IMG/VR virus record: IMGVR_UViG_3300035307_000034
Span: 1 to 38,482 of that record
DNA from: a virus
Taxonomy: Duplodnaviria; Caudoviricetes
Strand: one strand, 5' to 3'
DNA: 38,482 nucleotides
Of the stretch, positions 3,577-35,730 are shown one piece after another. Below the pieces are notes generated by a model that saw only the letters and a program-made list of their open reading frames with translations, was not told where the DNA came from and searched no databases. A program made the position numbers and the translations under genes. Numbering within the stretch: the stretch's first letter is position 1; every line of letters begins with the position of its first letter.

Positions 3577-4323
3577 TTAGTAACCTGTTATAGATGATTT
3601 GCCAGAGCGGAAAGGAACGACGTTATCTTCTTCGTCTTCATCTTCTACAGAGGGCGCGCACCTAGCAAATACTAGTCCGGAGACCATTGCATATCGAGTT
3701 GCGTCCATAAGATGATCGTTCTCTTTTACAATCATACCCTTCTTCGACCGCCTGTAAATGCGATACTCAGAAGCCCAGTTAGAGCAAGTTCTAAATACTT
3801 TTAATCGTCCTGACACCAGTCTGCTGTATACTTCGTAGATTCCAGCTTCCACAGCATTATCAGCAGGGCGGAGCTTAAGGCCGAGATTTCTATAAATGTC
3901 AATGAGCTTAGAACCATCCATTTGAGATGAACCAGCTCCAGCAGGATCAATAACGCCGGGAATATATTCGCCACGAGCCCGGATAGAATGTGCGTGAATT
4001 TGTGGAGGATTTTGGCCAAGGTAATGCTCAGAGTAAATGTAGACGACGTCGGAATCTCGGTCCCAGGCGCACCAGACGACAGCGGTTCGGTTCCAACCGA
4101 CGTCCATGCCGTAAACTTTCGGCCAGTATTCCGGGATTTTTATCGGGTCAATAAAGATGTCATCTTCGGGGACGGGGTAAACCTTGCCAGAACCAAGCAT
4201 AGGGATGCCCTTAGATCGGGCTTCACGTTCGTGTACGGGGAACTGCTTAAGCATTTCATCGCACATTGCTTTAGTTAAGTGTGGAACCTCACTCCACCCT
4301 ATAGTCGTGACCCACCTAGCCAT
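3577..4323 (-). CDS. terL: Terminase large subunit, C-terminal part (ATPase lid segment plus RNase H-like nuclease domain)
   Basis: HEREARSKGIPMLGSGKVY, GMDVGW, IDPAG and NDHLMDATRYA motifs, colinear with the P22 gp2 C-terminal half. Confidence 0.9.
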   Translation of the reverse strand: MARWVTTIGWSEVPHLTKAMCDEMLKQFPVHEREARSKGIPMLGSGKVYPVPEDDIFIDPIKIPEYWPKVYGMDVGWNRTAVVWCAWDRDSDVVYIYSEHYLGQNPPQIHAHSIRARGEYIPGVIDPAGAGSSQMDGSKLIDIYRNLGLKLRPADNAVEAGIYEVYSRLVSGRLKVFRTCSNWASEYRIYRRSKKGMIVKENDHLMDATRYAMVSGLVFARCAPSVEDEDEEDNVVPFRSGKSSITGY

Positions 4324-6155
4324 TAGTCGTCTTCGCCTTCGTGCTCATCCTCATATGGGCGAACACTATTTATGTCCGTAATATTTGGCGCGTATTCTGG
4401 CAAGTATAAAAGAACAACGTCTGATAGCCCATTAAGTGGAGTAAAAGTACAGATCATTATTCCATCTCTAGTCATAAGTCTAGTTAAGCATTCAGTGTAT
4501 ACGTCTAGAGGTCCTTCCTCATCCAGCCAAATTAAATCGCGTGCAGTTCCTTGGAACTTCTTCCTTCCCTGATCAAAACTCTTTAGGCCAAGCGTGCTAG
4601 CCCCACCTGACACATGTTTAATTCTTACGGTATCGACCGCGCCTGGGACGCCAGCCCTATGAGTTGGTACTCCCAGGATGCAATCTTTTGGAATCAGACC
4701 CGAGCCAAAATCACCGATGTCTCCTAAGAGTATCTGCTGAACGATGTCACGCGTAGTCTCAGAGGTATCAGAAGCACTCCATGCGTCAATCGGCCTCCTA
4801 AACCTCCTGCCTTCCCACCATTCAGGATATCTCCCCGTCAAGTGCAAAGATGTCTCATATCCTCCGATGCCGAAGCTCTTCCCCGAGTTGTGGCTGACGA
4901 TTCCGCCACTTTCATAACAATGCGTTTCCTCTACAGTAAAATCCAAAACTGGTTGATAACCAATGCTTTCTATGATATTTATCCTTTGGCCACCAACTAA
5001 CCTAAGATGACCGTATGGGATATAACAATCATAAATCGGTGTGCGAAGTGCACCATCAAGAAATTCTTCTTTTGATTGACCAAAAGGTAACCATCGTACA
5101 GATTGCACGAACGCTGGGAATTCCACATTCAGCGCTGAAAGGATATCTTGGGCGTCGTCATATCCATTCACAAAGCCCCGCCGATGCTTCCCACAAGGTC
5201 GATGAGAAGCGTGTCGCTGAGATGCTAGCTTTAGGAACAACTCATCGGATAATAGCCGAAGTTCTCGGCATTCATCGCTCGACAGTAGAGCGGACAGCGA
5301 AGAAGCTTGGCCTACAAACCGCGAGATCAGGTCCACGATCTGGTGTGGGTCATCCAGAATGGAAAGGGGGAAGGGTTCTTGAAAAATACGGTTATATCGG
5401 CATCCATGCTCCTCTGCATCCCCAGGCAAAAAAAACCAATGGGCGGGTTCCTGAGCACCGACTTGTGATGGAGGTGAAGCTTCAGCGGTTCCTGACAAGG
5501 GAAGAAGTTGTTGATCACAAAGACAACTGTCCCTATCACAACTGGCCAGATAATTTGGCCAGTTACGCTTGCAATGCAGACCACTTGAGAGCTGAACTAA
5601 CAGGGAAATGGGCGTCCAGCCCTCGGAAGTCAATAATAGGTGCTTACGGGTGCAATCAAAAGTTGAACCATTGTCCAAATGAAGACGAAACATTGGCTCA
5701 ATGCCCTTTAGAAATACGCCGCCAGCTTTTTTTTTACATCGAGAGCTTCCGTCCCACGACGAAACATAAAAACCTTCCTCGCCGATCAATTCTGAGATTA
5801 GGCGCGTGGAGGAACCCATTTCTATGGGAGTAAGTGGGCCTAAACAACGATTTGCCGCGATTGCTGCGCGTTCTCTGTACTCCCGTCCTGCTTTAAAAAA
5901 TTCCATGTGCTTCGGGTACAACTCCCTTCTCAGAGGACCTGTCTCGGGATACAGCGTTTGGAGCTTATTGTACTTGTTATGGTTTTCTATCGCCTCCAAA
6001 TGCTGGAGGAGTTCGTCGCCTTCTTTTTCAGGCAACTTCCCAATCGCAGTCGGTGATGGCTTCAGCTTCTGGAGAAGCGCCTTTACCTGATCTGGGGGCA
6101 ATGTTTTCAAGTAGTCTTGCAGGTTCTGCGGTGATTTCGATGGCTTCTGGGACAT
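4323..6155 (-). CDS. terL: Terminase large subunit, N-terminal ATPase part, intein-containing precursor
   Basis: Walker A AANR|SGKS interrupted by the intein; HLTGRYPEWWEGRRF; Walker B LIWLDEE; coupling motif TFTPLNG. Start uncertain because it overlaps terS. Confidence 0.9.
   Translation of the reverse strand: MSQKPSKSPQNLQDYLKTLPPDQVKALLQKLKPSPTAIGKLPEKEGDELLQHLEAIENHNKYNKLQTLYPETGPLRRELYPKHMEFFKAGREYRERAAIAANRCLGPLTPIEMGSSTRLISELIGEEGFYVSSWDGSSRCKKKAGGVFLKGIEPMFRLHLDNGSTFDCTRKHLLLTSEGWTPISLLVQLSSGLHCKRNWPNYLASCDRDSCLCDQQLLPLSGTAEASPPSQVGAQEPAHWFFLPGDAEEHGCRYNRIFQEPFPLSILDDPHQIVDLISRFVGQASSLSALLSSDECRELRLLSDELFLKLASQRHASHRPCGKHRRGFVNGYDDAQDILSALNVEFPAFVQSVRWLPFGQSKEEFLDGALRTPIYDCYIPYGHLRLVGGQRINIIESIGYQPVLDFTVEETHCYESGGIVSHNSGKSFGIGGYETSLHLTGRYPEWWEGRRFRRPIDAWSASDTSETTRDIVQQILLGDIGDFGSGLIPKDCILGVPTHRAGVPGAVDTVRIKHVSGGASTLGLKSFDQGRKKFQGTARDLIWLDEEGPLDVYTECLTRLMTRDGIMICTFTPLNGLSDVVLLYLPEYAPNITDINSVRPYEDEHEGEDD
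4887..5846 (-). mobile_element. Intein (320 aa) in TerL Walker A
   Basis: Begins CLGPLTPI (Cys codon 5846-5844); block B DCTRKHLLLTSEGW; block F VLDFTVEETHCY; ends SHN followed by +1 Ser. Removal restores AANRSGKS. Confidence 0.92.
5015..5833 (+). CDS. HTH-containing HNH homing endonuclease encoded antisense inside the intein
   Basis: Two HTH-like segments (TIVQIARTLGIPHSALKGYL; THRIIAEVLGIHRSTVERTAKKLGL), a NUMOD3-like GHPEWKGGR segment and an HNH_3-type core EHRLVME...EVVDHKDNCPYHNWPDNL...ADH. Confidence 0.85.
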   Translation: MGYNNHKSVCEVHHQEILLLIDQKVTIVQIARTLGIPHSALKGYLGRRHIHSQSPADASHKVDEKRVAEMLALGTTHRIIAEVLGIHRSTVERTAKKLGLQTARSGPRSGVGHPEWKGGRVLEKYGYIGIHAPLHPQAKKTNGRVPEHRLVMEVKLQRFLTREEVVDHKDNCPYHNWPDNLASYACNADHLRAELTGKWASSPRKSIIGAYGCNQKLNHCPNEDETLAQCPLEIRRQLFFYIESFRPTTKHKNLPRRSILRLGAWRNPFLWE

Positions 6156-6660
6156 GCTCTTTGAATAGCTCTGGGTTCGTCTTGGCTAATATTTCCAATA
6201 TACGCAAATTCCTTTCATCTTCGCTGACCTTATGCTCTATCTCATTTCGGACTTCAGAGTACCGAGTCCCATATTTCTGAGGAGCCAATCTTTCTGCAAG
6301 CTTAATATAGGCTTCTACTGCCTGTCTTCCATTCTTCGCGTCGTCTCTTGCGAGATGTTCCTCCAATTGGAAAAGCGCCCGATCCATCAGCGTATGTGAT
6401 TGCTGGGAGCGGGCGCGACAGAGCATTTCGGAAAATTCAGGATTCTTATAAGCCCATGTGTATATGGAATGCGTCTCAATCTTGAGGCGTTTCGCAATTT
6501 TTTCCATGGTTAACCCACTCGCGATCATCTCGCAAATGAGTTCCGCCCGTTCTTGAGTGTAAATTCCTGGGCCTATTTTTTTTGGTTTTAGTCCGACAAA
6601 GTCACCGAGACGCCCTTTTAACAGACTTTTGGCTGTTTTTGCGTTTGTCGGCTTTAACAA
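6028..6660 (-). CDS. terS: Terminase small subunit (Sf6 gp1-like)
   Basis: YTQERAELICEMIASGLTM..I...IYTW....PEF......AR and RLAPQKYG motifs, immediately upstream of terL. Start uncertain. Confidence 0.8.
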   Translation of the reverse strand: MLKPTNAKTAKSLLKGRLGDFVGLKPKKIGPGIYTQERAELICEMIASGLTMEKIAKRLKIETHSIYTWAYKNPEFSEMLCRARSQQSHTLMDRALFQLEEHLARDDAKNGRQAVEAYIKLAERLAPQKYGTRYSEVRNEIEHKVSEDERNLRILEILAKTNPELFKEHVPEAIEITAEPARLLENIAPRSGKGASPEAEAITDCDWEVA

Positions 6661-8010: not shown

Positions 8011-8391
8011 TTGACGACCAATAGCATAGCCCGACCTGATTGCAGCCCAGATAAACGTCCGAAAATAAGCGCGTCTATGCGCTTAAAAGTGTGGGAGCTT
8101 CGGAAGGGCATATGCTATTGTTGTCGCCAGCCCATCATCGGGCATAAGGAGAAATGGATTGTCGAACACGTCATTGCGCGAGGAATCTGTGGAAAAGACG
8201 AAATAGCCAACTATTGGCCTTGTCATGAGACCTGCCGACGCGAAAAAGACAAGATCGACATCAAAATGATAGCGAAGACTAAGCGTATAAAAAAGCGCAA
8301 TTTAGGGATAAAAACGTCGAAATCTAATTTTGCGGGCGGAAAAAACTCTAAGTTCAAGAAAAAACTAGACGGAACAGTGGTGCTGCGATGA
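8011..8391 (+). CDS. HNH endonuclease (Zn-binding CxxC type)
   Basis: CYCCRQPI...VEHVIARG..G.D...N....HETC with a basic tail KKKLDGTVV. Confidence 0.8.
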   Translation: MTTNSIARPDCSPDKRPKISASMRLKVWELRKGICYCCRQPIIGHKEKWIVEHVIARGICGKDEIANYWPCHETCRREKDKIDIKMIAKTKRIKKRNLGIKTSKSNFAGGKNSKFKKKLDGTVVLR

Positions 8392-12226: not shown

Positions 12227-12380
12227 CCGATCTATATTTCTTACCATTTGCTAACATTATGTAGCTCCTGTGAACACTTCCTGCTTCACTGAGTTCAGTT
12301 TCACGACTTGCTCAAACAAATCGCCAGAGCTTTCCTCTCCACAGGCGTAAATTCCCGCCGATCTGGCGGTACCGTAGTCT
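12227..12380 (-). ncRNA. Putative omegaRNA/reRNA scaffold and IS right end of the TnpB element
   Basis: TnpB 3' end GCCTGTGGAGAG...GAAGCAGGAAG followed by ...GTAAGAAATATAGATCGG, resembling GG-ending IS607 right ends. Boundaries approximate. Confidence 0.5.
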
Positions 12381-13456
12381 TCTAAATTCTGCGCGGCGTT
12401 CTCGTCGCGGTCGTGATTAGCGCCGCAGTTGTCACATGTCCACTCGCGTTCGCTAAGGAGCAAAGTCTTGCGGACGACTTTGCAACGTGAACAGCGCTTG
12501 CTTGTCGGCTCAAACCTTGGCGCGAACATGATGTCCGAGCCGAATAACGCCGTCTTGTACTCGGACTGGCGGCGGAATTCGTACAACCCAACATCAGAAA
12601 TAGCGCGCGAAAGCTTACCGTTCTTCATCATCCCTCTAACGTTGAGGTCTTCAAGAACGATAAGGTTTCCGCTTTTGCAGATTGCTGTGGAGGCCTTATG
12701 TAGTGCGTCGGAGCGAATACTCGCGATCCTAGCGTGAAGCTTCGCCACTTTCGCTATGGCTTTACGCCGATTTTTCGAGCTTTTCTTGCGGCGCGCAACA
12801 ATCCGCTGAAGCTTCGCGAGTTTTTTCAGACGCTTGCGCAAAGCATCCGGGGCTTTGAACTTCATCCCGTTCGAACAAACCGCCATAGTTTTTATGCCGA
12901 GATCAACGCCGATAACGCCTTGGCTTTCGCACGTTTCGGCTTGATCTTCTGTCTCTATGCTCAATGCAACGAACCAGCGATCTGCTGTTCTTGAAACGAC
13001 TGCGGATCGGACTTGGCCACTAAATCGTGTTTCTTCACACATCCTCACCCATCCGATGACCGGGAGCTTAACGCGCTTGCCGTTGATCTGAACGGCCTGC
13101 GGCGTCGCTTCTCCAGTCCCCCCGTCAGCCCGGAAGCTATCGCGAACGCCCTTGCGCTTGAAACGTGGATATTTCCCTTGTCCTTGAAAAAAACGCTCGA
13201 ACGCTCGGCCCAAGTTCTTGATGGCTTGCTGTGGAGCGTTCTTTGTCACCTCATAGCACCATGGGAAATCAGTCTTTTTCAGAGCATTAAATTGTCTGCG
13301 CAAGGACACTTCAGATGGCTTTCCGCCAGCTTCGTACTGGCGTTTCCATTCTGCCAGCGCCCAGTTATAAGCAAACCGCGCAACACCAGCAGACTTAGCC
13401 ATAAGGCTAGCCTGTCTGTTATTCGGGTTCAGCGCTATTTTATGGGAGCGAAGCAA
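12257..13456 (-). CDS. tnpB: RNA-guided endonuclease TnpB (IS607/IS200-IS605 type), no tnpA
   Basis: N-terminal GVARFAYNWAL; RuvC residues GVDLG, LEDLNV, HDRDENAA; zinc finger CSRC...CDNC. Confidence 0.93.
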   Translation of the reverse strand: MLRSHKIALNPNNRQASLMAKSAGVARFAYNWALAEWKRQYEAGGKPSEVSLRRQFNALKKTDFPWCYEVTKNAPQQAIKNLGRAFERFFQGQGKYPRFKRKGVRDSFRADGGTGEATPQAVQINGKRVKLPVIGWVRMCEETRFSGQVRSAVVSRTADRWFVALSIETEDQAETCESQGVIGVDLGIKTMAVCSNGMKFKAPDALRKRLKKLAKLQRIVARRKKSSKNRRKAIAKVAKLHARIASIRSDALHKASTAICKSGNLIVLEDLNVRGMMKNGKLSRAISDVGLYEFRRQSEYKTALFGSDIMFAPRFEPTSKRCSRCKVVRKTLLLSEREWTCDNCGANHDRDENAAQNLEDYGTARSAGIYACGEESSGDLFEQVVKLNSVKQEVFTGAT

Positions 13457-15228: not shown

Positions 15229-15550
15229 CGGGCGTTCTTTCGAGTAATCGAGCTAAATGAGCGGCAAAAACCCCTTCGAACATATCTGCCAAAATCGTCT
15301 TCGAAGTCTTAGACGTTTCAACGAGCTGGAGCGATAGAGCCGCCGCCGTCGATAAGGAAGTCGCCAGGGAATACAACACATCATCTAACGGGACATCATC
15401 ATTGATGTAGGCATCGAAGATGATATCACAAAAGCGGCTAACAAGCTGCCATGAAAACTCTTTCTCTGGCGTGCTTCTATCCCGCGTTAGGAGCTCTTCG
15501 TGAAAGCCTTTTCGCCACGTTTCGACGGCGTTCTTGGTTTCTTCCGACAT
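15158..15550 (-). CDS. Hypothetical protein
   Basis: ORF in the minus-strand operon. Confidence 0.55.
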   Translation of the reverse strand: MSEETKNAVETWRKGFHEELLTRDRSTPEKEFSWQLVSRFCDIIFDAYINDDVPLDDVLYSLATSLSTAAALSLQLVETSKTSKTILADMFEGVFAAHLARLLERTPDDPVNDGETVDPDAPVPEGGNNS

Positions 15551-16422
15551 ATTTTCTTTGCTTTCTCCGCTGTTTCATCTATCTGCTTCAAACTTTCCAT
15601 TATTTCCCCACGCGTTATATCGCATGCGTGAGGGTCGAAGTTCGCGGCGTTAAGGTCGTATCCCTCATAACCACGCTGGTTAGAACATACTACTGTGCCT
15701 TTTACTCTGAATCTAGAATTATCATGCGTGTGTCCATGAATCGCGAGGACAAGCTTGTTTTTATTGCCCATAACTCGCTCAAAATTCGAATAGTATGCCC
15801 AATCCATGTCACCCGGAGGATACGCCGAAAACTTCTTGCTCAACCAAGATGGAGCATGATGAGTAATCAGTATCTTTGCTCTCTCCGGATATTCCTTAAT
15901 AAGCTTGGCGATATTGTACCGGCACCTCTTATGCTGATCGTAAACATCTTTTGGCGTGATGCAACGCGTATAACCCTTTTGGTCCGTCATCCGGATCGAA
16001 CGGCAATCAGACATCCGCGCCCTTATTAACTCCATTTGGCTCACATCGGGGTAACCATAGCTTGCCCAGAGTGTTGACCCAATAAAGACAAGGCCGTATT
16101 CCAAAACGATCTGATTATCAAGCAACTTAGCGTTAGGAGCATTCTCCGCTAGGAATTTGCGGATAATATCCGACGTCTCCGACCAGTGACAACCGTAATG
16201 CTCGTGATTGCCATTAACCAGAAACACCCGCTCATACTTGCTAAGCTCATCAGCGCAAAAACGACGAAACCTGTCCCTAACCTTAAGGCCACTCACGCTA
16301 GTACAGTCGTCTCTCATCGGCGCGGCAAGCCAAGTGTCTCCCGCTAGGAGAAGAATGTCGCCGCCTGGAAGCGTCAAGTCGCCAAATTCCAGGTGTAGAT
16401 CAGACATGGCGCTGATTAGCAT
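15487..16422 (-). CDS. Calcineurin-like metallophosphoesterase
   Basis: SDLH, LAGD, NGNHEHY, THHAP, HGHTH motifs. Confidence 0.92.
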   Translation of the reverse strand: MLISAMSDLHLEFGDLTLPGGDILLLAGDTWLAAPMRDDCTSVSGLKVRDRFRRFCADELSKYERVFLVNGNHEHYGCHWSETSDIIRKFLAENAPNAKLLDNQIVLEYGLVFIGSTLWASYGYPDVSQMELIRARMSDCRSIRMTDQKGYTRCITPKDVYDQHKRCRYNIAKLIKEYPERAKILITHHAPSWLSKKFSAYPPGDMDWAYYSNFERVMGNKNKLVLAIHGHTHDNSRFRVKGTVVCSNQRGYEGYDLNAANFDPHACDITRGEIMESLKQIDETAEKAKKICRKKPRTPSKRGEKAFTKSS

Positions 16423-17447
16423 TCGTTTTTCTCCTTAAGTAGAAACCTGTTATTGATCGCCTTGAAACTATATTCTCGTTCTCCGTCGCGATAGTTCCGC
16501 CAAACAACTCCTTCGGCTTCAACACCTGACAACAACGCAGATTCGACCTCAGAAAGCGCTAATATTTCCTGAATTGTTCCTGGCAAATAATCCATTTTGT
16601 AGATCAATGGGCAAATGTCCAACCCCAGACCTTCTGCGATCCCCATGAATTCGGTCTCGTCTACATAGCATTCCTTTGCTATATCATAGACTGAGAACAG
16701 CCGCCATTCAGGACGGTTGCGCCGATATCTGTTTTTCTGGATGCCAGGGCCGATAAGCTCGCCTTGAAGGGCGTAGCAAGTCCTTTGACCCGCAAGGAAA
16801 GCGGCGACGTCATGCTCTCTGGCGATTTCCCATGCGGGATGAGATTCTTCTTCCTTGAGCTCCCAGTTACGAGAGCAAACACCGAATTCCGTTCCGTCCC
16901 AGTACATGGAAATCGACGTTCCATCGAGCTTTTCGCGGCCATACCAGCCCTTGGATATCCTCATGTAGTCCAGAATCCTGGTGCAATTCTGGATACGAGG
17001 CTCATCCGTTTTTGGGAACAGCGCTGTCGGGAAATTGCCTTTCATTGTTCCAGCGATTTGGACAGGAACGGCTGGCTCCCATTTCGTGACGCCAAGCTCT
17101 TCGGTGAGGTCATCACCCTCTTTGGGCGCGATGTCCCAAGGCGCGCAAACCTCATCAAGCGGCATGAGAAGCCCTTGGCTCAGCTGCCCTCGCAGCCTGA
17201 TGGTCTTTAAGCGAAATCCTTCTGTTCCATCAACCATCTTCTTGTATGAGCTCTTGCGAAGAAACTCATATTCTGGCTTGATAGGCAGAAACGAATCGAT
17301 TTCGTAATAAGCCGCCAGATCGCCAACTCCAAATTGACCCTTTTTGGTGACAACCTCCCAGCCATCCACACGCGCAATCTCTATGGCGTCCGCGCCAGGG
17401 ATAGGCGACAGCTCTTCAATCTTCCTGACGGTGACTAATCTCCGCAT
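16416..17447 (-). CDS. ATP-dependent RNA ligase, DRB0094/Rnl5 family
   Basis: N-terminal OB-fold PIPGADAIE..VDGW.VV..KG and LRGQLSQGL; motif I EKLDGTS; CSRN, QGELIGPGIQKN, EGVV, SFKAI. Confidence 0.92.
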   Translation of the reverse strand: MRRLVTVRKIEELSPIPGADAIEIARVDGWEVVTKKGQFGVGDLAAYYEIDSFLPIKPEYEFLRKSSYKKMVDGTEGFRLKTIRLRGQLSQGLLMPLDEVCAPWDIAPKEGDDLTEELGVTKWEPAVPVQIAGTMKGNFPTALFPKTDEPRIQNCTRILDYMRISKGWYGREKLDGTSISMYWDGTEFGVCSRNWELKEEESHPAWEIAREHDVAAFLAGQRTCYALQGELIGPGIQKNRYRRNRPEWRLFSVYDIAKECYVDETEFMGIAEGLGLDICPLIYKMDYLPGTIQEILALSEVESALLSGVEAEGVVWRNYRDGEREYSFKAINNRFLLKEKNEC

Positions 17448-17526
17448 GGATTCTCCAAAAAATAATCCCAATCGATATCATCGACCAGGATTATAACTCA
17501 ACAGTTAAACTTTAAAAAATGTATTT

Positions 17527-17704
17527 TTATTGGGGGATGTCGATTACTTCAACGAAGTCCGCTTTCGCTCTCCGTCGCATATCCGTCTATAGCCTCCGGG
17601 TGCAGCGACAACGATATGCGGCTGATCCTTGCCCAACATCTCCTGATTGCGCGTAGGGACGTGCCACAGACTAAAACCCTTACTTTGTAGCGTGTGAGGT
17701 CCAT
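17527..17704 (-). pseudogene. Remnant of a YspA/SLOG (DUF2493-like) gene
   Basis: Three frames give VRVLVCG / RNQEMLGKDQPHIVVAAPGG / TDMRRRAKADFVEVIDIPQ*, i.e. the N- and C-terminal motifs with the middle deleted. Confidence 0.6.
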
Positions 17705-17707
17705 AGT

Positions 17708-18088
17708 TCACTCAAGAGGAATTGAGACTGGGCTTCTATCGATCTGCTTTTCCGCCTGCAAAGCAACGAGCGGACGACTAGGTGTTTCCTTCCATCCTTC
17801 CTGTTTGAGAATCGGGAGCTCCTCAGGAAAAAATCCAACAATCACAAGCCCCTGATATTTTGGCGAAAAGAAATACGCCGCAGAAGTTATGATCCTAACG
17901 GTCTCTCTTAGAATAGACGCCCGATCCCCTCTGATGTGTCCAAGGTTAAAAGTAATCTTACTTGTCGGGGTCTTTGCTGCATAGAGATGGATGCTGTCGA
18001 CGCCGACTTTCCCTTTGTCGAAAGGTCCCGCAGCAAATGCCGTTATCTTGTGGCGAAGCGCGTCTTGCCAGTCTCGTCCCATCGTCAT
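17708..18088 (-). CDS. Hypothetical protein
   Basis: ATGA overlap with the upstream phosphatase. Confidence 0.5.
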   Translation of the reverse strand: MTMGRDWQDALRHKITAFAAGPFDKGKVGVDSIHLYAAKTPTSKITFNLGHIRGDRASILRETVRIITSAAYFFSPKYQGLVIVGFFPEELPILKQEGWKETPSRPLVALQAEKQIDRSPVSIPLE

Positions 18089-18525
18089 AGTTCGGCTCCA
18101 TCCGTAACTTGACAGCAAAATATTCCATTCCGCCGCCACATATCCACACAACGCTGACGGTCTTCAAACGCAATGTCGGGGACTTCGCCCCATGCTGTGA
18201 TGATCTCCGCTAGCAAGTCCTGTTTTACAGTATCGTCGGGGCGATAGTCATGAGCAGGACGAAAATACATCGCATCGGCAGCTAAATCGTGCCTCTTAAG
18301 CCAAAGCTCTGTTGCTGGACGACATCCTTCATTGCGACCACTACAAACCAAGATCGTTGCGCCATAGCGCTTCAATGCGCGCCAGATAGTGGCTGTTGCG
18401 TCGATAATAGCATCCTCGTCAAGCGCAGCATAGAACGCCTCCCGACTGGGAGGCGTCTTCTGCACATGATAACGCCGATGGGCACAATCAGCGACTGTCC
18501 CATCAAGATCGAAAATCGCGATCAT
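18085..18525 (-). CDS. HAD-superfamily phosphatase (T4 PseT/PNKP 3'-phosphatase-like)
   Basis: DLDGT, CSGR, RP.HD.RPDD.VK, FEDR..CVDMWR..GI.C.QV. Confidence 0.88.
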   Translation of the reverse strand: MIAIFDLDGTVADCAHRRYHVQKTPPSREAFYAALDEDAIIDATATIWRALKRYGATILVCSGRNEGCRPATELWLKRHDLAADAMYFRPAHDYRPDDTVKQDLLAEIITAWGEVPDIAFEDRQRCVDMWRRNGIFCCQVTDGAEL

Positions 18526-24816: not shown

Positions 24817-25311
24817 TCAATCGAACCTAGCAAACTCTCCAAAATGATGACGAGCAGCTACACGATAAGCTTCATGAGCCTCCTCAGGAGTAGAGAAGTA
24901 ACCGAGATGGATGTTCCGGCGATTGACCTTTATCCGGCTTCGCCACTTTCTTTTCTGCTGGTGAAACCCAACCCCTTTGAAACCAGAACGATTATGAGAT
25001 GGACGTTTGCAATTGGCGCTGTTCTGAAATGGAGTAGCTGGACGAAGGTTGGAAATTCGATTGTCAAGGGTGTTCCCATCTCGATGACCAATTCTCGGAG
25101 GAACATAACCATGGACATAGAGAAATGCTAGCCGATGTGATGAGTAACGCTTGTTATCTATTTGTATGTAATGGTAAAATCCGTATTTGTCACGCCTCGT
25201 TGTCCCCGCCACAGTACGTTTTAGGCCAGAGCCTTTGTCGATAAGCCACGTAAAAATCCCGGTGCAGGGGTCGTAAGTAAGTATCTTCTTGAGGTATTCT
25301 TGGGTAATCAT
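24817..25311 (-). CDS. HNH-AP2 homing endonuclease
   Basis: SHRLAFLY, GHRDGNTLDNRISNLR, SGFKGV...KWRSRI...HLGYF..PEEA..AY..AA...FGEFA. Confidence 0.9.
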   Translation of the reverse strand: MITQEYLKKILTYDPCTGIFTWLIDKGSGLKRTVAGTTRRDKYGFYHYIQIDNKRYSSHRLAFLYVHGYVPPRIGHRDGNTLDNRISNLRPATPFQNSANCKRPSHNRSGFKGVGFHQQKRKWRSRIKVNRRNIHLGYFSTPEEAHEAYRVAARHHFGEFARFD

Positions 25312-34343: not shown

Positions 34344-35012
34344 ATGAAATTCGACGTAACAAATCGCTGGAGCGGGAGTATCATTTTTACTGCTGAGATT
34401 CAATGTGAGGAAGGCGCGAGTTACGGCGTCAGGCTTGGCTTCGCGGTCAAATGGGGCATCACTAACACCGCTAACCTGTGCAACGCTAACCTGTGCAACG
34501 CTGACCTGCGCGGCGCTGACCTGCGCGGCGCTGACCTGCGCGGCGCTGACCTGCGCGGCGCTGACCTGTGCGGCGCTAACCTGTGCGGCGCTGACCTGTG
34601 CGGCGCTGACCTGTGCGGCGCTGACCTGCGCGGCGCTGACCTGTGCAACGCTGACCTGTGCGGCGCTGACCTGCGCGGCGCTGACCTGCGCGGCGCTAAC
34701 CTGTGCGGCGCTGACCTGTGCGGCGCTAACCTGTGCAACGCTGACCTGTGCAACGCTGACCTGTGCAACGCTAAGAATGCCCCAGTTATCATCAACTATC
34801 TACCTTGGACGACATATGTATACAAAGATTATGCGATTATAGGATGTCAGGAGATTAGCCGCTATGGAATTGAAACATGGGGCAATGATGTTACTCGCGA
34901 ACAATACAAACAATATTTTCCGTTTAAGCAAGTCCTTATTGCCGTTTGGGAATACGCATTTCCAATAGGAAACTATTGTGGAGGAATGACCAGCGCAACA
35001 GAGCAAGATTGA
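34344..35012 (+). CDS. Pentapeptide-repeat protein (20 near-identical A[DN]L[RC][GN] repeats)
   Basis: Translation and 15-bp tandem DNA repeat. Confidence 0.9.
   Translation: MKFDVTNRWSGSIIFTAEIQCEEGASYGVRLGFAVKWGITNTANLCNANLCNADLRGADLRGADLRGADLRGADLCGANLCGADLCGADLCGADLRGADLCNADLCGADLRGADLRGANLCGADLCGANLCNADLCNADLCNAKNAPVIINYLPWTTYVYKDYAIIGCQEISRYGIETWGNDVTREQYKQYFPFKQVLIAVWEYAFPIGNYCGGMTSATEQD
34470..34769 (+). repeat. 15-bp tandem repeat x20, GCT(G/A)ACCTG(C/T)GC(GG/AA)C
   Basis: Read directly; 300 nt. Confidence 0.95.
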
Positions 35013-35064
35013 CGCAGCAAAATTTTACGGAACATCTGCAAAGCTCTAGAAAAAAGGCGCAGAC

Positions 35065-35730
35065 ATGCGGTTTAGCATATTCGGTAACTGGGGCCATTCT
35101 CCAATAGCAACTGTGGATATCGACAGAGGCGAACATAACTCATATTTCGATAACTTAGGGAATGCCGTCAAGTTAGCGATAGCAAAAGGGAAAAACCTAT
35201 GGGGTGCAAACCTGTGGGGCGCGAATTTACAAGATGCTGATTTATCTAATGCTAGTTTCTGTAGCGCATCTCTACGCTTTGCCGATTTTACTCGTGCGAA
35301 ACTATGGGGAGCGGATTTTCGCGGCACAGACCTAAGAGGCGCAAAAGGATTGCCGCCTGAAATGGTGCAACCTTTGCTCTTCTTGCGTGACCAGCCAGGG
35401 AAAATAAGGATGTACAAGCTAGTTACGGCAGACGGGCAAGGGCCATATCATCGGGGAATCCTATATGAAATAGGGAAAACCGTTAGCGTTAAGAGCGCAA
35501 ACACTAACGATTGGCAAGAATGCGCAGAGGGAATATCTGTCGGAACTTTAGATTGGTGCTTTAAGCACTGGAAAGAAGGATACCGAATACTAATAGTCGA
35601 GTTCGAGGCAAAAGACATTGCCGCGATCCCAACGGCGGCCGATGGAAAAATCCGGTTGTTTAGATGTACTGTCGTTGCAGAAAAAGAATTGAATTACGTA
35701 GCGCTCGGTCTGAAAAAACCAACGGAATAG
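35065..35730 (+). CDS. Pentapeptide-repeat protein with distinct C-terminal domain
   Basis: KNLWG ANLWG ANLQD ADLSN ASFCS...; C-domain YEIGKTV...CAEGI...DGKIR. Confidence 0.85.
   Translation: MRFSIFGNWGHSPIATVDIDRGEHNSYFDNLGNAVKLAIAKGKNLWGANLWGANLQDADLSNASFCSASLRFADFTRAKLWGADFRGTDLRGAKGLPPEMVQPLLFLRDQPGKIRMYKLVTADGQGPYHRGILYEIGKTVSVKSANTNDWQECAEGISVGTLDWCFKHWKEGYRILIVEFEAKDIAAIPTAADGKIRLFRCTVVAEKELNYVALGLKKPTE

Follow-up and report, generated by a model that had tools for sequence, protein, structure and literature searches.

An antisense HTH-HTH-HNH gene within an intein of the phage large terminase subunit

Results

The terminase locus and its intein

The stretch of DNA analysed here (the window) is a virus record of 38,482 bases. 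At its terminase locus, an ORF for the ATPase domain of the large subunit TerL (the phage DNA-packaging ATPase; 4323-6155, minus strand) sits between the small-subunit gene and a separate TerL nuclease ORF with the portal gene (Table 1). TerL is likewise divided into ATPase and nuclease ORFs in 20 of 74 intein-bearing representatives and in several empty (intein-less) alleles, and is fused in 41; since other loci share the split, we regard it as a lineage trait and not a sequencing error.

The Walker A motif of this TerL is split by a 320-aa intein, corresponding to residues 104-423 of the ORF, with the junctions AANR/SGKS. All of the residues expected of a canonical intein at this site were located, as had been originally predicted: C1, T66xxH69, D302, H319-N320 and a Ser at +1. 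The window intein falls below the Pfam and NCBIfam intein cut-offs. A profile of the N-terminal region from 36 family sequences matches 28 solved intein sequences (DnaB/DnaE/RecA; best 7.9e-7), and C1 and H69 are invariant in 36/36 inteins. Homologous terL alleles without the insertion (L131 and 57 other distinct alleles) establish that it lies in frame and is absent elsewhere. An intron was considered, but the open host frame and the conservation of the splicing residues led us to reject it. From these residues, the intein is predicted to splice from TerL by a class 1 route. Consistent with the expectation that its centre would hold no recognisable in-frame endonuclease, no PHROGs family was found in the TerL frame, where dN/dS under the HNH core is 2.13. 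A single-sequence AF2 model of the intein (pLDDT 30) was set aside.

Table 1. Features of the terminase locus in the window
Feature	Position	Strand	Remarks
TerL nuclease domain, own ORF	3577..4323	-	Pfam Terminase_6C 9.2e-13; TAATG stop/start overlap
TerL C-extein, remainder of ATPase domain	4323..4886	-	Pfam Terminase_6N 7.2e-11
Intein, 320 aa, in Walker A of TerL	4887..5846	-	Pfam Intein_splicing 2.6e-4 (below cut-off)
C-terminal splicing region, last 42 aa	4887..5012	-	Outside HNH ORF; antisense strand is HNH upstream region
-10-like hexamer TATGAT	4971..4976	+	Weak candidate; 6 nt upstream of the position conserved in the family
HTH-HTH-HNH gene, 272 aa	5015..5833	+	Antisense to intein
Two helix-turn-helix domains, aa ~11-47 and ~58-99	5045..5311	+	Pfam HTH_23 2.7e-8; AF2 model; fold matches
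HNH core	5315..5605	+	E147-H148-R149, D167-H168, N176, N180, N187, H190
C-terminal tail of HNH protein	5606..5830	+	No recognised family; antisense to N-terminal splicing domain; selected as protein
N-terminal splicing region, aa 1-92	5571..5846	-	HNH tail overlaps on opposite strand; retained in mini-intein P0122
TerL N-extein, C-terminal end ...AAIAANR	5847..6155	-	
Terminase small subunit (TerS)	6028..6660	-	Pfam Sf6_terminase 2.7e-17

An HTH-HTH-HNH gene on the opposite strand

The 272-aa ORF predicted on the opposite strand is present at the coordinates given, and its phase is also as described: first codon positions of the HNH and TerL frames coincide, and each wobble position faces position 2 of the other gene. 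Its two HTH-like segments are supported by Pfam, by an AF2 model and by fold matches to HTH domains. Pfam on the window copy returned HTH families only, the HNH cut-offs being unmet; the PHROGs HNH matches (E 6e-18, 1e-15 and 5e-13), together with Pfam HNH_3 matches in 38/66 family members, uphold the proposed HNH_3-type core. H168, N176, N180 and H190 are invariant in 66/66 members, and the codon of H190 (5582-5584) places the end of the core close to the anticipated ~5585. By analogy with I-HmuI, we take H168, N187 and H190 to have catalytic roles. At the level of structure, the protein matches predicted viral HNH nuclease models at E<1e-3. Foldseek against the PDB gave no match at E<=0.001, I-HmuI (1u3e) standing at rank 32 with E 1.5, and a VIA fold search returned HTH domains only, which filled the list (best Z 7.2). 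The tail of the protein has no recognised family, and the ESM Atlas gave no usable match for it. The nuclease is likely to be the homing enzyme of the intein.

Three further readings of this ORF were discarded. The NUMOD3-like label originally given to a GHPEWKGG segment has no Pfam match in the window copy, and lies outside the top 25 families of its relatives. A C-C-H-H zinc motif in the tail is not claimed, as all four residues occur in 30/63 members and the window copy reads C-C-F-H. A frameshift route to HNH expression was rejected because the gene lies on the other strand.

Family size and carriers

A protein search gave 128 matches among 1,099 candidates, and at least 85 of the 120 matches listed are relatives, with 41-62% identity over 72-98% of length. 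DNA scans, one of which covered the best 80 of 143, gave at least 130 loci. In 130/131 loci (window and duplicates included) the antisense frame stays open along the match and keeps its phase, the lone exception (L048) being frameshifted. Dereplication at 97% identity reduced 123 complete inteins to 74, with 8 incomplete loci dropped. When 56 exteins were scanned, 49 matched a terminase family and 7 no family. Two insertion sites recur, three residues apart, before and after the Walker A Gly-Lys. Other inteins also occur after this Gly-Lys (L147, L161, L170, L266 and L267), mostly Ala-first and in both mini- and longer forms.

A scan that took in more distant relatives confirmed at least 542 of 600 stretches with 26 of 64 parts scanned. 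Its best 80 stretches represent 74 distinct loci, some overlapping the first set, and the antisense frame is open over 337-961 aa in 74/74, with several automatic end calls wrong; two of the HNH ORFs are short.

The element is also found in cultured phages, namely eight Pectobacterium/Dickeya phages (the Ymer group) and Pseudoalteromonas phage PHS3. The GenBank annotation of Ymer shows the TerL strand only, and the main text of the Ymer paper uses neither of the terms 'intein' and 'HNH' (PMC11445585). For PHS3 (L212, KX912252.1, 541-2519), GenBank lists the HNH as free-standing next to a truncated TerL whose start lies inside the C-terminal region of the intein; the TerL frame is in fact open throughout the 300-aa intein. 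A long-tail family member (P0047) is also found in the complete Sphingobium phenoxybenzoativorans genome (QUT04043.1, hypothetical protein).

Selection on the two reading frames

We used stop codons and dN/dS as measures of constraint on each frame. Under the HNH centre, synonymous codon choice across the 74 inteins would be expected to give 290 stops in the TerL frame, of which none was observed, extending to the family the stop-free centre seen in the window; stop counts in non-overlapping control regions were as expected. The antisense phase of non-overlapping regions contains 3.3-5.4 stops per 100 codons, and at this rate a frame pair open in 130/131 loci is not open by chance. Fourteen independent pairs (68-91% nucleotide identity) gave dN/dS values in the HNH/TerL frames of 0.18/2.13 for the HNH core, 0.35/1.60 for the HTHs and 2.41/0.17 for the C-terminal splicing region. 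Purifying selection acts on each frame, and the dual coding originally proposed, with conservation of both ORFs and per-frame dN/dS as its check, is borne out. The dN/dS of the centre and its absence of stops also indicate that the centre is an HNH gene, and that the intein frame there need only stay open.

Where the HNH tail crosses the N-terminal splicing domain, dN/dS was 0.65/0.59, both frames being constrained. The suggestion that the two frames evolve fairly independently thus fails over the last ~70 HNH codons. Intein wobble positions point the same way: they differ at 0.21 across the N-terminal splicing domain, against 0.46 across the C-terminal region, and some of them are fixed in 63/63.

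The HNH stop codon falls at intein position <=11 in 63/74 inteins and at 39-70 in the other 11/74. Over the tail, the 63 have 0 stops where 94 would be expected, a comparison that is circular as the group was defined by tail length. Therefore, we built a tree from the HNH core alone (98 columns, midpoint root), in which the 63 long-tail members, the window included, form one clade (99/81), with Ymer and PHS3 as its sister and short-tail forms outside. Within the tail, frame identity was 0.72 vs 0.32 when shuffled, and substitutions were conservative (BLOSUM -0.45 vs -1.29; control -1.41 vs -1.48). These patterns argue that ~70 splicing-domain codons are selected as protein on both strands in the 63-member clade. 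The tail of Ymer and PHS3 is unmatched by the tail profile of that clade.

Expression signals inside the intein

Counting from the intein end, 63/74 inteins have a start codon at codon 41-42; as the start was defined as the first candidate in a window of positions, an ATG shuffle test would be biased and was not used. SD duplexes of -5 kcal/mol or stronger occur in 54/73 (30 when shuffled). A -10-like hexamer stands at one position in 35/74 against 5.0 expected, with an extended TG in 30 against 12. Matches to a -35 are not enriched across the family (3.35 vs 3.29). A further TATAAT-like site is enriched as well (24 vs 6.0), and local codon bias may therefore contribute to the -10 signal. In the window copy, the SD is weak (-1.3 kcal/mol), the family's -10 position reads ATTTAT, and a promoter scan gave a single site where 2.6 were expected.

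Empty alleles, mobility and ancestry

The nearest terL allele (L131, 77%) has the same AANR/SGKS junction and is empty. The closest 80 of 333 confirmed viral terL loci comprise 61 distinct ones, with 58 uninterrupted and 3 carrying other inteins three residues downstream. In the extein tree, the window groups with empty alleles. AU tests on a 46-row extein tree, with groups picked after inspection of the tree, rejected a single clade of intein carriers (p 3e-5) and also a grouping of the window and L064, its sister by HNH (p 6e-72), with a marginal result in a third test (p 0.037). Taken with the patchy distribution, these are the signs of a mobile element that the original prediction had led us to expect, and the empty alleles, the mini-intein derivative described below and the incongruent trees suggest that the element is probably mobile. 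No near-identical inteins were seen in divergent exteins, and present-day homing thus lies beyond the sequence evidence. The element is present in each of the eight Ymer-group phages, which fits vertical inheritance within that group. The +1 residue of most empty alleles is Val or Ile, neither of which can support splicing at AANR/SGKS, so usable targets are few.

Among the closest relatives, P0123-P0125 share 100% of their first 100 C-extein residues and only 72-79% of the N-splicing region, a pattern that could equally reflect extein exchange around old inteins. We infer the antisense ORFs of P0121-P0125 from their match to the centre profile (E 1e-20 to 2e-41). P0122 has a mini-intein of 150 aa at this site, with 80% identity to the N-terminal region of the window intein, which would most simply have arisen by deletion of the HNH from a full element. 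It is the sole mini-intein found, and so gives no support to the proposal that an HNH gene invaded a mini-intein. The proposed kinship to free-standing HNH genes fared better, as relatives of the HNH core exist outside any intein. A single-protein scan for endonuclease-less relatives returned one already known locus only. The closest TerL relatives (P0121-P0125; L218:2408-4078) carry up to two extra inteins, following LGFK and TARDV, one of them with LAGLIDADG Pfam matches, making up to three inteins per ATPase domain.

Discussion

Relation to known systems

The architecture had originally been thought undescribed, which it is not. In the text available to us, Gosselin, Arsenault and Gogarten describe inteins whose endonucleases are HNH (in-frame), LAGLIDADG or VSR-like (both antisense) or EndoVII-like (out-of-frame), and they propose the same origin, by invasion of inteins by free-standing HENs (bioRxiv 10.1101/2025.01.02.630785). 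As in their antisense-HEN inteins, a separate opposite-strand endonuclease ORF here overlies a contiguous, stop-free host frame, and many of their non-canonical inteins are likewise in TerL with a patchy distribution. The nuclease type is what differs, being HTH-HTH-HNH here as opposed to LAGLIDADG or VSR-like (EDxHD), with HNH appearing only in-frame in their main text; unlike their cases, the HNH family is also large in environmental phages. We found no antisense HNH intein in the literature searched, which covered few subscription papers and to which the supplement of Gosselin et al. could add cases. The element is therefore an HNH variant of a published architecture, to which the selected tail and the cultured carriers add most.

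Other systems share parts of the arrangement, as far as the available portions of the reports describe them. The cyanobacterial DnaX intein has an out-of-frame LAGLIDADG in a +2 ORF (Phillips et al., bioRxiv 10.64898/2026.09.14.751524), and the Synechocystis case is classed as antisense by Gosselin et al. (10.1101/2025.01.02.630785). It resembles the TerL element in its separate overlapping ORF, its frame-dependent dN/dS and its coexisting full, mini and empty alleles, and differs in its LAGLIDADG nuclease, its bacterial host gene and its description as a +2 ORF. The ShiLan HNH insertion in phage methylases (PMC11855218) similarly hides an HNH ORF over a stop-free host frame, but in the third frame with respect to the host gene, with the opposite strand unmentioned in the portion available and without a splicing domain. 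In the split-intein fractured genes described by Dassa et al. (PMC2677866), an endonuclease also lies between intein halves, in one case in a terminase; there the intein is split and the nuclease, GIY-YIG or Vsr-like, is on the same strand. Over the HNH core, Mycobacterium phage Thibault gp148 and halovirus phiH gp74, both free-standing HNH proteins, are 44-48% identical, but these are ordinary co-oriented genes outside any intein.

Proposed mechanism and alternatives

We consider it quite likely that the locus is a two-transcript selfish element, consisting of a Walker A intein and an intact antisense HNH for homing. Late terL mRNA would give a precursor from which the intein is removed by class 1 splicing (C1, block B His, terminal His-Asn, +1 Ser). 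A promoter antisense to the C-terminal splicing region would drive the HNH message, and since it would lie inside the intein, the element would take its own expression signals along when moving. The two HTH domains would bind DNA and the HNH core would nick or cut a co-infecting phage's DNA close to the empty junction, after which the cut intein-free terL would be repaired by copying the element across. The ~170-aa centre would be passive filler in the intein frame, required only to be stop-free. We infer that splicing and homing would be timed separately.

Another way to view the antisense gene is as a dead relic of an old invasion, so that the intein would amount to a mini-intein carrying a long insert. 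The weak SD and -10 of the window copy would fit this, as would the decay seen in the family (the frameshifted L048, two short HNH ORFs and the mini-intein), but the window ORF is full-length with every conserved core residue, and a family dN/dS of 0.18 with an intact frame in 130/131 loci makes a relic highly improbable. Alternatively, a working HNH may have been co-opted by the phage, for instance as a packaging cofactor, a competitor-cutting nuclease or an HTH regulator, and not serve homing. HNH proteins do act as packaging cofactors. The element is always in terminase genes where the host can be named (49/56 exteins; 7 no family), it is fixed in all Ymer-group phages, and the selected novel tail suggests an extra role. 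However, close relatives lack the element or have the HNH deleted, the distribution is patchy and incongruent, and insertion is always at the conserved Walker A site; on balance, we regard co-option as unlikely.

The remaining alternative concerns the tail alone: the nuclease would be real, and the constraint on the N-splicing domain would come from an RNA or DNA element, with the tail a neutral read-through. ORF ends in the sister group do vary (intein positions 39-70), no family or fold is recognised for the tail, and that of Ymer and PHS3 is unmatched by the clade's tail profile. Set against this, all 63 members of a clade defined by the HNH core are open to intein position <=11, the amino-acid substitutions are conservative and the wobble sites of the intein include some that are fixed in 63/63, so that we hold neutrality to be very unlikely. 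For a selected tail, we propose that in the 63-member clade the HNH would have read on across the N-terminal splicing domain, gaining ~70 aa that are now selected, most likely because the tail adds DNA contact or stability. We lean slightly against going further, to an ~70-aa domain born antisense to the splicing domain and needed by the homing nuclease, in a self-contained two-strand parasite. If that were true, one strand would encode a splicing enzyme, and the other a promoter, a ribosome site, a nuclease and a de novo domain; such a birth may even have occurred twice, as the tail of Ymer and PHS3 is unmatched by the tail profile of the clade.

Antisense-endonuclease inteins have been described as rare, yet the HNH version occurs at well over 100 distinct loci of environmental phages, as well as in cultured phages whose annotation shows one strand only. 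Its empty, short-tail, long-tail and mini-intein forms provide a natural series for studying how inteins acquire endonucleases and how new coding sequence is added to overlapping genes, and the cultured carriers put antisense expression and homing within experimental reach.

Other features of the window

Elsewhere in the window are a 399-aa transposase-family ORF (12257-13456, minus strand; phrog_506, 1e-113) and two more HNH-type ORFs by PHROGs (8011-8391, plus; 24817-25311, minus). A metallophosphoesterase, an RNA ligase and a polynucleotide kinase form a cluster at 15487-18525 (minus) that resembles an RNA repair module. Two adjacent, related ORFs of ~220 aa at 34344-35730 (plus) repeat phrog_7713 segments, the second weakly matching RIIB, and downstream of the portal lies a GroES-like co-chaperonin ORF (436-855, minus).
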